Position numbers and translations under genes: made by a program. A DNA stretch of 64,000 nt from Dictyostelium discoideum (taxonomy: Eukaryota), in the NCBI GenBank assembly GCA_000004695.1, contig CM000155.2:2112001-2176000 (forward strand), written 5' to 3'. Under the pieces are notes generated by a model that saw nothing but the letters and a program-made list of their open reading frames with translations, was not told the origin of the DNA and searched no databases. Of this stretch, positions 26,130-33,345 are shown piece by piece (position 1 is the stretch's first letter; the number at the start of each line of letters is the position of its first letter).

Positions 26130-26300
26130 CTGAAATCGATTATATTATTGTGTTTAAATGGTATTGATGTACATTGCAATACCACAAATTGAGACCATCA
26201 TTTGTTAAATAATTTGATACCTCATCAAATGATACTGTTGAATCCGCTTATTAAACTTAATTTTGCTTCACATGTGCCTTTGACTACTGACACCACCAGT
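26130..26300 (-). pseudogene. Degenerate fragment homologous to the last exon of the aerolysin-like gene at 31669..32906
   Basis: Minus strand reads ...STVSFDEVSNYLTNDGLNLWYCNVHQYHL. Compare terminal exon ...STVSFDEVSNYLTTDGVNRWYSDVKFPW at 31669..31760. 26290..26330 also echoes 32360..32400 (ccagctgatgcagtggcttcaactttaa). No intact ORF. Confidence 0.6.
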
Positions 26301-26629
26301 TGATGCAGTGGCTTCAACTTTATAACAAAGAGAGTTTAGTCGAATAATTGAACCTGATTCTTTCTTAAAATATTCTTACCAAATTCAATTACTCATCTTA
26401 AACTTTTTTCCACCATCTTTAACACACGTGTTAATAATTATAAATAAATTAAAAGTTTTAATTGAACCTTACCCATTTTCAAAATTACCAATAAATATTA
26501 TACATATATATAAATTAAAATAAAATAAATTTATAACATGTAATAATAAAAACAAAATTAATGAATTTTTTATTTATTTATTTATTTTTATATGCTAAAT
26601 TATAAAAAAAAAAAAATTTAATTGATTTA

Positions 26630-27340
26630 TTATGATTGGTTAGTTTGAATAGATGCAGATTTTTGAATTTTAAATATATGTAATAAGAATGGGTAATTAT
26701 CGCATGGTGATTGAACAGTTTCCGGCCATTTTAAATGTAATTCTTCTTCCAAACAGTATTTAGCAAAGTTGTGGCATTTATTCTTTCTACCCCATGCGTT
26801 GTCTCCACCACATTTTTCTTTAATGAAGATATAAAATGATTCATGGAAACGGTTACGGATATTCATGTCTCTATCACAGTTATCGCCTTCAGCATATTCT
26901 TTAGTTTAAGTCAACAATGTTATACCCACTTTTGCAGTCTTAGTCAATTTTGTTGAATTAGAACTTCTTTCAGTTACTTGGAAACCAGTTTCAATAGAAT
27001 TCATTGCATCCTTCATTGCCAAATGAATTTCTAAACCTACTGGGTGATCATCATCATCAGATTCACCATTTTTATCTATAATAATAGAATAGTGACCAAC
27101 ATTTGTACCAACGTATTCCTCAAATGCCCCTTTTGTAAATTCTGGCACCAATTAATTGATCATTGAATTTGAGTAGACGTTCGAATTATATATTTTTTTA
27201 AAAATCATTAATTTCTATTTATATTATTATATTTAAATAATATATTTCTAAAAAAATATACTTACTAAATAAACATCAAGTACTCTTTCTTGGTTTACTT
27301 AAACCAATGACATTTCTTTTTCTTTTTCTTTAAAAAAATA
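26630..27340 (-). pseudogene. Tandem-array copy 1 of the MGN/Cys-rich family; inactivated by in-frame nonsense mutations
   Basis: Same two-exon layout as copies 2 and 3. Exon 1 carries TTG GTT TAA where intact copies have TTG GTT GAA (..SLVE..). Exon 2 carries TTG ACT TAA where intact copies have TTG ATT AAA (LIKTKEY). The acceptor region is also mutated. The ORF track shows the broken pieces 26906..27151 and 26630..26866. Confidence 0.6.
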
Positions 27341-27604
27341 ATTACCCATTTTTTTTTTTTATTTAAACTTTTTTTTATTATACAAATAATTAATAAAAAA
27401 AAAAAAAAAAAAAAAAAAAATTAAAAAAAAAAAAAAAACCTCATTCATTTTCAATATTACCATTTAATATTATTTAAATTTATTAAAATAAAATAAAATA
27501 AAATAATTACTATATAACATTTATTAATAAAAACAAAACCAATGATTTTTTCATTTATTTATTGTTGTAATTGATAAATTATAAAAAAATAATTTTTGAT
27601 TGAT

Positions 27605-28333
27605 TTATGATTGGTTAGTTTGAATAGAAGCAGATTTTTGAATTTTTAATATATCTAATAAGAATGGGTAATTATCGCATGGTGATTGAACAGTTTCCGG
27701 CCATTTTAAATGTAATTCTTCTTCCAAACAGTATTTAGCAAAGTTGTGGCAGTTATTCTTTCTACCCCATGCGTTGTCTCCACCACATATTTCTTTAATG
27801 AAGGTATAAAATGATTCATGGAAACGGTTACGGATATTAATGTCTCTATCACAGTCATCGCCTTCAACATATTCTTTAGTTTTAATCAACAATGCTTTAC
27901 CAACTTTTACAGTCTTAATCAATTTTGTTGAATTAGAACTTCTTTGGGTTACTTGGAAACCAGTTTCAATAGAATTCATTGCATCCTTCATTACCAAATG
28001 AATCTCTAAACCTACTGGGTGATCATCATCATCAGATTCGCCATTTTTATCTATAATAATAGAATAGTGACCTGCATTTGTACCGATGTATTCTTCAACT
28101 GTACCCTTTTTGTAAATTCTAGCACCTATTAATTCATCACTTGAGTTTGAGTAGACGTTCTATATTATATATATATATTTTATAAAACCATTAGTTTCTA
28201 TTTATATTATTAAAATTAAATAATATTTTTTTTAAAAAAATAAACATACTAAATAAACATCAAGTACTCTTTCTTGGTTTACTTCAACCAATGACATTTC
28301 TTTTTCTTTTTCTTTAAAAAAATAATTACCCAT
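27605..28333 (-). CDS. Tandem-array copy 2: novel about 213-aa protein, MGN N-terminus, C-terminal Cys-rich domain (function unknown)
   Basis: Exons 28250..28333 (MGNYFFKEKEKEMSLVEVNQERVLDVYL; donor GTATGT) and 27605..28159 (acceptor tatatag; NVYSNSSDELIGARIYKKGTVEEYIGTNAGHYSIIIDKNGESDDDDHPVGLEIHLVMKDAMNSIETGFQVTQRSSNSTKLIKTVKVGKALLIKTKEYVEGDDCDRDINIRNRFHESFYTFIKEICGGDNAWGRKNNCHNFAKYCLEEELHLKWPETVQSPCDNYPFLLDILKIQKSASIQTNQS). No family recognised. Confidence 0.6.
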
Positions 28334-28643
28334 TTTTTTTTTTTTTAATATATACTCCTTTTTTTTTTGTACAAATAAAAAAAAAAAAAAAAAAAAAAAC
28401 AAAAAAATAAAACAAAAATTAAAAAAAAAAAAAAAAAAGTAAAATATGTTTTACATATTTCTTTTTTAAATTTATAATATGAATCAACCATTGATAAAAA
28501 AAATATTTTACCACTTATAATTTTTTTTTAAAAAAAAAAAAAATTAAATAAAAACCCTTTTATTAATAAAAACAAAACCAATGATTTTTTTATTTATTTA
28601 TTGTTGTATATGATAAATTATAAAAAAATAATTTTTGATTGAT

Positions 28644-31225: not shown

Positions 31226-31419
31226 AGTTAATATTGGTTGAGTTTTTATTGTTTTTTTTTTTTCTACATGAAAAAAAAAAAAAAAATAAAAAAAAAATTA
31301 AAAAAAATATAAAAAAAAATTTTTTTTTTCCTTTTTATTTATTTTTATTCATCTAGTCATAGTTTTCTAATTTTGGAAAATGAAAATAAAAAAATAATGT
31401 TTGAAATTATTTAAATCTT

Positions 31420-31461
<42 letters not shown>

Positions 31462-31668
31462 AAAATAGATAATATATATCTAAAAAATAATATTAGTTTT
31501 TTATCAATTATCTACTCTTTTTTTTAAAAATAGATAAATATTTTTTATAAAAATGAATTAAAACTAATTAATATTATTTTTTTTTTTTTTTTTTTTTTAT
31601 TGACAAACTGTTCTAAAATCGATAACAAATTGTGATTTAAAAATAAAATAAAATTTTGATGATAAGAT

Positions 31669-32906
31669 TTACCATGGGAATTTAACATCTGAATACCATC
31701 TATTGACACCATCAGTTGTTAAATAATTTGATACTTCATCAAATGATACAGTTGAATAGACTATATAATTATTAAAATTAGATTTTTGGAATTAATAAAT
31801 GTGTATTTTCCCAATATTGAAATAAAATTTTTAATCAATTTAATACTTACAATCTTCTTTATAGAGTTTGGTAAAACTAAATAATAAACACATATGAAAT
31901 AATAATAATAAAATAATAAATATTAGTTAATTGTAATAAATATAAAAGTTTTTTTTTTAAAATTAATAAATTAATATATTACCAATCATCTCTATAAACT
32001 GGGAAAAAGAAATATCTTTGGGTACCTTTTCCATAGTATACCTTAACACCAGTACATGATGATAATTGCCAGCTAGCATCAAGATCTTTGAAATCATCCG
32101 TTTCATCATTAAAAATGAAAGCATAGAGCATGATGTTTTGATATTGATAATATGAACCTGGAGTGAGAGTCTAAAATTTTAAATAAAAAAAAAATAAAAG
32201 ATTAGTAAAGTGATTATCATCTCACCTCTCACATCCAAAGGATGATGTATAAAAGTTATATAAATGATGTGATACCTCTTCCCAAGTTTCAGTGGTTTCT
32301 TCCATTTGAGAGCTTGTGTATGAATATCCACTGGTTACACTTAACTTTGCTTCGCAGCCCATAATACTGGCACCAGCTGATGCAGTGGCTTCAACTTTAA
32401 TTGTTGATGATTTTGATGAACCTTTCTTTTTAGTTAATGTAGTTTTTACAGTACCTGCAATTTCTTTGTCACCTTGGAAGTCTAAAAAGCATGCAACTGG
32501 TTTAGCAAAACAGTAAACATCCATAGTTCTATTTGGATGATTACCAACAAATTTGAATATTTTTAAATCAGTACTCCATGGTGCTTCATTCATACACATT
32601 GGTTCTGGAAAGGTTTGTGATTTTGTGACTGCTGCAATCTCTGAATTACTCTATTTAATGCATAAAAAAAAAAAAAAAAAAAATTAATTGATATTTATTT
32701 ATTTTATTTTATTTTATTTTATTTTATTTTATTTTTATATTTTTATATTAAAATTGTTAATAAATTAATTGACTTACTTTGCACATTTGACTGTTTTTCA
32801 TGTCAAATCTACGAAAAGCAGCACGGTCTTTAAAATCTTTACTTTCACGGTAGTGCTTTAATGTAATGACATTTGGTGGGATAATTGATTCAACTGTTGG
32901 TTCCAT
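31669..32906 (-). CDS. Candidate aerolysin/ETX-MTX2-like beta-pore-forming protein (about 269 aa, 5 exons)
   Basis: Exons 32778..32906, 32276..32650, 31983..32170, 31851..31876, 31669..31760. Donors GTAAGT, GTATCA (non-canonical; the only phase-compatible option), GTAATA, GTAAGT. Exon 2 encodes TVKTTLTKKKGSSKSSTIKVEATASAGASIMGCEAKLSVTSGYSYTSSQMEETTETWEE. This is a roughly 30-residue strictly alternating hydrophobic/polar stretch with a central SAGAS turn, flanked by Ser/Thr/Lys, i.e. the pre-stem amphipathic hairpin typical of aerolysin-family toxins. Downstream exons are beta-rich (TLTPGSYYQYQNIMLYAFIF...VKVYYGKGTQRYFFFPVYRDD...). The assignment is by pattern only. Confidence 0.5.
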
Positions 32907-33249
32907 TTTTTGTTGTGTTATATAACTAAATAATTTGGAAAAGAGCTAAAAAAAAAAAAACTATTTATACACTTTTTTTTTTATTTTTTAATTGAATTAA
33001 AAAAATAAAAAAAAAAAAACCTTATCTGAAAATATAAAGAATTTTAAAAAAAAAAAAATTCAATTATGTTCAAAACCGATTAATAAACAATTTTTTTAAT
33101 TTAATTTCGTAATTTAGTATCAAATTTAATTTTATTTTTATTTTTTATTTAATTTTTCACCAATTGATTTTCGATGATTATAGTTGAGGAAAGTAATTTT
33201 ATGGGTTGGTAGTAAGAATCTTTTTTTTTTTTTTTTTTTTTAAATTATT

Positions 33250-33345
33250 TTTATTTTCTATGGGAGCTCCCCTTAGGTTTCATATAACCTTTTTTAATAT
33301 ATTTTATAACCGTGGTGCATTTATTATACCAACAACTATTAATAC
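33250..33345. repeat. About 90-bp duplicated fragment of the 3' end of gene 30125..31225
   Basis: 33266..33340 (ggtttcatataaccttttttaatatattttataac..ccaacaactattaatacat) matches 30203..30290 (ggtttcatataaccttttttaatatattttataac..ccaacagctattaatacaag). Confidence 0.7.

Follow-up and report, generated by a model that had tools for sequence, protein, structure and literature searches.

A lineage-specific, structurally variable block between cysK and a conserved neighbour in Dictyostelium discoideum AX4, with two gene relics and a small tandem array

The sequence under study is a stretch of 64,000 nucleotides (nt) of chromosome 6 of Dictyostelium discoideum AX4 (contig CM000155.2, positions 2,112,001 to 2,176,000 of the forward strand, hereafter the window), and the subject of this analysis is a block of 7.7 kb within it, which is located between the cysteine synthase gene cysK and a conserved gene on the plus strand, and in which every gene is on the minus strand. 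The block contains the gene of a monalysin-type β-barrel pore-former, the gene of a DUF202 membrane protein, one short and broken copy of each of these two genes (hereafter the relics), and a tandem array of a third gene, the product of which is putatively of NlpC/P60 fold. In the reading that we consider probable, the block is a lineage-specific and structurally unstable region formed by duplication, decay and deletion; that is to say, the pair of pore-former and DUF202 genes would have been duplicated and would have lost opposite copies, and the array would have undergone birth-and-death evolution. The block is not one functional device. The original prediction, which was made from the letters of the AX4 sequence, described it as a rapidly rearranging, accessory-like region, and this is supported by the six different forms that the block takes between collinear flanks in eight genomes.

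Since the G+C content of the window is about 22%, the scoring of similarity needs to be stated beforehand. Lax BLAST scoring without low-complexity masking produced hundreds of spurious AT-rich matches, which were dropped and replaced by a stringent masked self-BLAST of the whole window, together with shuffle controls and controls made of real segments. In this self-comparison, which had been proposed together with the original prediction, off-diagonal similarity remains real after masking and goes beyond AT-rich low-complexity matches. Inside the block only the array and three relic matches stand out (expectation values, E, of 7e-9 to 3.5e-19 for the relics), and none of 300 control segments of real window DNA of like G+C attains the relic scores; all four of the duplicated pieces that had been predicted within the block were recovered in this way, far above chance. 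Gene models built by hand are the same as the annotated products residue by residue, with exact matches to five AX4 proteins (CysK, DDB_G0292844, DDB_G0292962, DDB_G0292964 and DDB_G0292966).

A check of the assembly had also been suggested. The assembly GCA_054883475.1 is 99.84% identical to positions 14817-35972 of the window and shows the same three-copy array, and because the same structure is present in this independent assembly, it is not an artefact of assembling. It comes from a Nanopore-plus-Illumina set that includes the AX2 laboratory strain (PMC12745789), and we infer that it is AX2 itself. The low G+C of the window and the hundreds of spurious matches under lax scoring are what could be brought forward for the repeats being an assembly artefact or a chance similarity of AT-rich DNA. 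This explanation is refuted by the self-BLAST, the independent assembly and the real-segment controls, and its probability is practically nil: shuffles and real controls never reach scores of the order obtained under stringent masking, and the relics are also present in other strains.

The pore-former relic is a dead fragment of 226 nt, the frames of which are broken, and it was delimited by self-BLAST, a protein scan and shuffles. It had been predicted as a degenerate copy of the last exon of an aerolysin-like gene at 26130-26300. The degenerate copy is real, but its extent is larger (Table 1), and it holds a piece of exon 2 and a piece of the 3′ untranslated region (3′UTR) in addition to exon 5. 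The protein scan recovers residues 128-136, 142-153 and 242-265 of the pore-former, in broken frames. A short ATTCA, found at both parent sites, marks the fusion of the exon-2 piece with the exon-5 piece; exon 2 breaks off 50 nt short of its end, the sequence resumes 3 nt inside exon 5, exons 3 and 4 are missing, and neither exon 1 nor the 5′ portion of exon 2 was found in a search upstream of 26322. A second such relic is present in D. cf. discoideum ACTFIY (locus L003, 11319-11464), with the same exon-2/exon-5 junction and the same 7-nt insertion as the relic of AX4. Both relics carry states specific to the discoideum complex and are 89-91% identical to the genes of the complex, versus 79% to the gene of D. 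dimigraforme. Because the two relics share the junction, the insertion and the complex-specific states, yet are only 78% identical to each other, the comparison of their sequences points to what would be a single event of old date and neutral decay afterwards. The relic is absent in the strains ACTFIR, ACTFIW and ACTFIZ.

The parent of the other relic is DDB_G0292964, a single-exon gene the product of which matches DUF202 (PF02656) over residues 268-329 with 25.3 bits (cut-off 23.4, E 2.2e-5). A copy of about 90 bp of the 3′ end of this gene had been placed at 33250-33345; it does exist, and its extent has to be corrected to the 72 nt at 33275-33346. The relic lies 370 bp upstream of the start codon of the pore-former gene, its score is reached by 0 of 300 shuffles and 0 of 300 real AT-rich control segments, and the protein scan finds DUF202 residues 324-339 in it, with no similarity in either of its flanks. 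The left junction (GAAGCTCCCCTT) is identical in all five genomes of the discoideum complex that were compared (ACTFIT being near-identical to AX4), and the relic is absent in D. citrinum, D. dimigraforme and D. firmibasis. Moreover, the relic holds the outgroup state ttataccaac, all living genes of the complex have ttaaaccaac, and the small deletions in the relic differ among AX4, ACTFIW, ACTFIY and ACTFIZ. From the one shared junction, the outgroup state and the strain-specific deletions it follows that the DUF202 relic goes back to a single event that preceded the diversification of the complex, that no conversion has affected it afterwards, and that it is decaying freely. Both relics are non-functional DNA, and a function is argued against by the independent small deletions inside them in different strains; lineage-specific deletions keep trimming the relics.

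For the comparison with other strains and species, which had likewise been proposed beforehand, CysK orthologs were used as anchors, and 21 kb around the locus were taken from seven further assemblies. The flanks are collinear in the eight genomes: PRELI, methyltransferase, F-box/WD40, peptidase A22B, TFIID-18kDa and cysK precede the block, which is itself variable, and the plus-strand gene and GH16 follow it. In D. firmibasis and D. citrinum it contains DUF202 only. In D. dimigraforme it consists of an intact pore-former gene, then DUF202 (locus L004, in which cysK is followed by the pore-former at 12429-13622, with 268 aa, and by DUF202 at 14219-15469). In D. cf. discoideum ACTFIZ there are a 32-nt inverted relic of the array gene, DUF202, a truncated pore-former gene and the DUF202 relic; in D. 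cf. discoideum ACTFIY, the pore-former relic, one array gene, DUF202, the pore-former gene and the DUF202 relic; and in D. discoideum ACTFIR and ACTFIW, one array gene, DUF202, the pore-former gene and the DUF202 relic, with AX4 26065-26616 and 29595-30083 missing. AX4 and ACTFIT have the pore-former relic, three array copies, DUF202, the pore-former gene and the DUF202 relic. A neighbour-joining tree of about 5 kb of the flanking conserved genes has the form (firmibasis,(dimigraforme,(citrinum,(FIZ,(FIY,((FIR,FIW),AX4)))))), with the strain names shortened, which agrees with the published grouping (PMC12745789). The intact pore-former gene of D. dimigraforme lies between cysK and DUF202, which is the position and the orientation of the AX4 relic, and the order of AX4 on the minus strand is an alternating one: pore-former relic, DUF202 gene, pore-former gene, DUF202 relic.

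The proposed history would start from the order cysK, pore-former, DUF202, as it still exists in D. dimigraforme. A duplication of the pair of pore-former and DUF202 in direct orientation would have followed in the stem of the discoideum complex. Of the two pore-former copies the first, and of the two DUF202 copies the second, would then have decayed and been mostly deleted, down to the relics of 226 nt and 72 nt. This loss of opposite copies would have made the gene order appear swapped, that is, relic, DUF202, pore-former, relic. The NlpC/P60-fold gene would have come to lie between the pore-former relic and DUF202, presumably by insertion, and unequal crossing-over between the flank repeats would have expanded and contracted the array; the outcome would be three copies in the AX4 lineage (one of them a pseudogene), one in other strains and the loss in ACTFIZ. 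The candidate rearrangement junction is about 120 nt of AT-rich DNA: the homology upstream of DUF202 in D. dimigraforme ends at 31461, and the 3′ homology of the pore-former, as defined by the relic, starts at 31578. Since this interval is AT-rich, the exact breakpoint is not resolvable within it.

The array had been predicted as three tandem copies of an MGN/Cys-rich family. The three copies are confirmed, also in the independent assembly; what had been missed is that copy 1 is a pseudogene. The array (26361-29594) consists of three full units of about 1 kb and a terminal partial unit, which are 88-93% identical and all on the minus strand; in the self-comparison, 26442-28555 matches 27414-29583 with 88.5% over 2194 nt (E 0), and 26511-27438 matches 28529-29465 with 87.9%. 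For the terminal partial unit, the alignment of 26361-26640 with 27325-27615 has a score of 107, which 0 of 300 shuffles reach (shuffle mean 36). Copy 1 has in-frame stops at two places, one of them in exon 1 (GAA to TAA), its reading frame shifts twice, and its intron has lost the acceptor. The other two copies are intact. The ratio of non-synonymous to synonymous divergence (dN/dS) in the array is 0.1-0.4, so that purifying selection acts on its intact genes. Four copies of the spacer bracket the three array genes, and the single array gene of ACTFIY has the same spacer element of about 73 nt on both sides; the spacer repeats that flank the array gene are the substrate needed for unequal exchange.

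The copy number of the array is three in AX4 and ACTFIT and one in ACTFIR, ACTFIW and ACTFIY, and ACTFIZ has only the 32-nt relic; at this locus no array gene is found in D. citrinum, D. dimigraforme and D. firmibasis. The fragment in ACTFIZ (locus L007, 11233-11264), which encodes HPVxLEIHLV, is 91% identical to AX4 copy 2 and lies inverted at the junction where the array is missing. The presence of this relic implies that an array gene was at the locus before the complex diversified. Relics of the pore-former and of the array gene were searched for at 29600-30124 of AX4 and in the cysK-proximal spacers of D. dimigraforme, D. citrinum and D. firmibasis, and none were found in any of these.

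The AX4 array copies make up a single clade, to the exclusion of the single genes found in other strains, and copies 2 and 3 differ by a synonymous divergence (dS) of 0.098. Between AX4 and ACTFIR/ACTFIW, dS is 0.10 for cysK, 0.13-0.14 for the C-terminal region of DUF202 and 0.10-0.11 for exon 2 of the pore-former, and it is 0.29-0.35 for exon 2 of the array gene (copies 2 and 3). When the array genes of AX4 (27605-29377) are compared with loci L005, L006 and L003, their dS is 0.27-0.36, versus 0.07-0.15 for cysK, DUF202 and the pore-former, which is an excess of about threefold. Either an ancestral array contained old paralogs of which different ones survive in different lineages, by birth and death, or the rate of substitution or of ectopic conversion is locally raised. 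As the dS is about 0.3 and the baseline of the locus about 0.1, the other strains seem to hold, as their single array gene, old paralogs distinct from the AX4 copies.

Several observations weigh against a history of duplication with opposite losses. Duplication of a whole segment predicts similarity in the flanks of the relics, and none was found: controls scored at least as high as the flanks in 108, 154 and 63 of 300 cases. The test is of low power, the flanks being about 10-28% GC and fast-evolving, and AT-rich ones align poorly even between strains. This history also requires that D. citrinum and D. firmibasis each lost the pore-former without trace, and that ACTFIR/ACTFIW and ACTFIZ deleted the pore-former relic independently. 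The threefold excess of dS in the array could come from a raised local rate of mutation or ectopic conversion and not from old paralogs, and the short relics, with 72 and about 150 informative nt, offer few sites for the dating. In addition, the sharp edges of the relics and the patchwork joined by microhomology also fit short templated insertions. According to that explanation, the relics are short gene pieces that were copied in independently during double-strand-break repair or template switching (filler DNA, similar to microhomology-mediated break-induced replication, MMBIR), and the pore-former moved or was gained separately. It would account for relic boundaries beyond which the flanks share nothing, for a pore-former relic made of non-adjacent gene pieces joined at 5 nt of microhomology, for the 32-nt inverted array-gene patch at the deletion junction of ACTFIZ, and for the non-templated GC-rich stretch GAAGCTCCCCTT that abuts the DUF202 relic. 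We nevertheless regard it as rather unlikely: it leaves unexplained why the pore-former relic is at the position and in the orientation of the intact gene of D. dimigraforme, as well as the alternating pattern on one strand that is expected of a tandem duplication, and the contiguous 3′UTR of the relic, which extends to the region of the poly(A) signal, exceeds a typical filler patch.

It is very improbable that the pore-former relic is a processed pseudogene, retro-copied from a spliced mRNA. The relic is without introns 2 to 4 and ends with 3′UTR, as such a copy would, and measured on the mRNA it would lack 267 nt, which is 89 codons. Against this, exons 3 and 4 are absent and the join does not coincide with exon boundaries, for which reasons this origin is disfavoured; moreover, there is neither a clear poly(A) tail nor a target-site duplication at the relic, and the relic stands where D. 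dimigraforme has the intact gene. The duplication of the pore-former/DUF202 pair with opposite losses is the reading that we prefer.

A general model describes tandem gene families that evolve by birth and death through unequal crossing-over. The array resembles such families in its head-to-tail units of about 1 kb, its flank repeats, its one pseudogene, its copy numbers of 0, 1 or 3 and its purifying selection; it differs from them in being very small, in that unequal crossing-over is deduced, and in its threefold excess of dS. Segmental duplication with reciprocal loss of the duplicates is known from post-duplication genomes, to which the block is similar in the order relic, DUF202, pore-former, relic on one strand and in having an outgroup with the pore-former followed by DUF202. 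The difference is that a two-gene segment of about 3 kb is concerned here, without surviving similarity of the flanks. The processes at the block (segmental duplication, reciprocal decay, tandem amplification and deletion) are well known and are ordinary genome turnover, and the findings leave the general understanding unchanged. The block would be a small resolved case in which the gene order changed without inversion or transposition, in which both relics are still readable, and of which an outgroup keeps the starting state. For practical work, two points matter for the design of knock-outs and for orthology tables: DDB_G0292842 is a pseudogene, and AX4 has in triplicate a gene of which the wild isolates examined have one copy.

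The gene in AX4 that had been called aerolysin-like is DDB_G0292966. It matches the BB_PF/monalysin family (PF18063) with 214.2 bits over profile positions 1-203 of 204 (cut-off 27, E 1.9e-63), and its match to aerolysin/ETX-MTX2 (PF03318) is below threshold, with 12.3 bits versus a cut-off of 22 (E 0.15); judged from the sequence, the name aerolysin-like would fit only in the loose sense of membership in the β-pore-former superfamily. The product is a predicted pore-former, which is like monalysin in covering the full domain and unlike it in being encoded by a eukaryotic, intron-bearing gene. The non-canonical GTATCA donor that had been ascribed to the gene is not one: the donor (GAG|GTATCA) begins with a canonical GT, the intron ends with AG, splicing at this site reproduces XP_629384.1 exactly, and GT(A) is kept in all strains and in D. 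dimigraforme. All four introns of the gene are GT..AG. Among dictyostelids the gene is patchily distributed, being found in the discoideum complex, D. dimigraforme and Polysphondylium violaceum. The copy of P. violaceum (locus L009, 10001-11007; 47% identity) is the sole homolog found outside the discoideum/dimigraforme group; it lies in an unrelated gene context, with neither cysK nor DUF202 nearby, and the gene at these positions does not translate to the query. In ACTFIZ the pore-former (locus L007, 13414-14937) appears truncated, with a product of 164 aa, exon 1 unmatched and only 202 nt of exon 2 aligned. This truncation, together with the absence of the gene from D. citrinum and D. firmibasis, suggests that the gene is dispensable.

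The array genes belong to a family that is found only in Dictyostelium, for which an exhaustive profile search gave 34 representatives at 50% identity. Neither intact copy has a Pfam match to LRAT/PLAAT (PF04970) or PPPDE at E up to 1, and ten distant relatives have no Pfam family over the matched region, LRAT included. Pfam does not bear out the UniProt label "LRAT domain-containing". A sequence-profile search of the PDB gave nothing significant, and the sole weak matches were to picornavirus 2A proteins across the "NC" motif (E 0.11 at best). A structural model of the protein made from 14 close homologs had a mean predicted local distance difference test score (pLDDT) of 36.6 and was discarded; from 33 more diverse sequences a model of copy 2 was obtained with a pLDDT of 75.5 and a predicted template modelling score (pTM) of 0.72, for which Foldseek found no match in the PDB. 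The structural relatives of the protein are what we take to be the papain-like NlpC/P60 superfamily, in which PPPDE/DeSI, PLAAT/LRAT and the picornavirus 2A H/NC proteins are included. The candidate catalytic residues H59 and C165 (in NNCHN) are invariant in the 14 close relatives; in the alignment of 33 sequences, H59 is conserved at 90% or more and C165 below 90%. On the basis of the model, the array protein is best described as a putative thiol hydrolase or acyltransferase of predicted NlpC/P60 fold. It would share this fold with the three groups named above, and it differs from them in having no Pfam match, no significant PDB match by sequence and a small family. In this way a formerly unclassified Dictyostelium protein family may be placed in the NlpC/P60 fold.

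The putative NlpC/P60-fold enzyme of the array would be related in fold to the PLAAT phospholipases and to TseH, an effector of the type VI secretion system (T6SS). The block might be a small, lineage-specific effector island, in which the pore-former and this enzyme would attack the membranes of prey bacteria or rival amoebae and which selection would keep in flux, a proposal that we consider distinctly unlikely. If it were true, the island would occupy a hotspot of local rearrangement, of a similar kind to tgrBC. The tgrBC locus is a hypermutable hotspot on AX4 chromosome 3, of 104 to over 250 kb, which codes for allorecognition receptors (PMC12745789). In the same genome group, both loci are blocks bounded by anchors, in which genes have been gained, lost, duplicated or inverted among strains and sister species; the block described here differs in being on chromosome 6, in its size and in its genes. 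No paper about the locus came up in literature searches with the species names and with the identifiers of the five genes.

Table 1. Features of the block and its borders, in positions of the window.
Feature	Position	Strand	Basis and details
cysK, cysteine synthase, conserved left flank	24817-25953	+	exact AX4 protein match
Pore-former relic, whole	26097-26322	-	self-BLAST, protein scan, shuffles
Pore-former relic, 3′UTR piece	26158-26097	-	vs 31578-31641; 0 of 300 shuffles as good
Pore-former relic, exon-5 piece	26243-26171	-	26178-26243 vs 31692-31757, 89.4% over 66 nt, E 1.5e-17
Pore-former relic, exon-2 piece (codons ~127-153)	26322-26242	-	vs 32326-32399, 77.8% over 81 nt, E 7e-9
Terminal partial array unit (flank repeat, inter-gene spacer)	26361-26616	-	strict similarity from 26442, weak from 26361
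Array copy 1, pseudogene, annotated as DDB_G0292842 (truncated, 145 aa)	26633-27349	-	gene model and protein scan
Array copy 2, intact, DDB_G0292844, 212 aa	27605-28333	-	exons 28333-28250, 28159-27605; = XP_629381.1
Array copy 3, intact, DDB_G0292962, 213 aa	28644-29377	-	exons 29377-29294, 29201-28644; = XP_629382.1
Spacer upstream of copy 3, last array-unit repeat	29378-29594	-	self-BLAST
Unique spacer	29595-30124	.	in ACTFIY and ACTFIZ (adjoins the cysK flank there); missing in ACTFIR and ACTFIW
DUF202 membrane-protein gene DDB_G0292964, 366 aa, single exon	30125-31225	-	parent of the relic (segment 30209-30281)
Candidate rearrangement junction, ~120 nt, AT-rich	31461-31578	.	homology ends on both sides
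Monalysin-type β-barrel pore-former gene DDB_G0292966, 269 aa	31669-32906	-	XP_629384.1, exact match
Pore-former exons (five)	32906-32778, 32650-32276, 32170-31983, 31876-31851, 31760-31669	-	
DUF202 relic, 72 nt (codons ~322-345)	33275-33346	-	vs 30209-30281, 89% over 73 columns, E 3.5e-19
Conserved right-flank gene	start 33680	+	plus-strand gene

Outside the block the genes of the window had been described as single-copy, which does not hold, since further duplicates are present at 5930-6212/7658-7976, at 7951-8467 and at 35.1-36.9/39.2-41.0 kb. The direct repeat 5930-6212 versus 7658-7976 has about 225 identical nt at a distance of 1.7 kb, and in its second copy 36 nt are inserted immediately ahead of a long poly-T run. 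The tandem repeat at 7951-8467 has 2.6 copies of 199 bp with 97% matches. The third is a pair of GH16-type paralogs (35100-36946 and 39207-41028), which are diverged, with about 65% nucleotide identity; this duplication is old, because D. firmibasis and D. citrinum likewise have the two genes in tandem. Finally, the plus-strand gene downstream of the block contains, at 34298-34455, a coding repeat of 12 nt in about nine in-register copies, which gives a (G)MP(P/M) peptide repeat.

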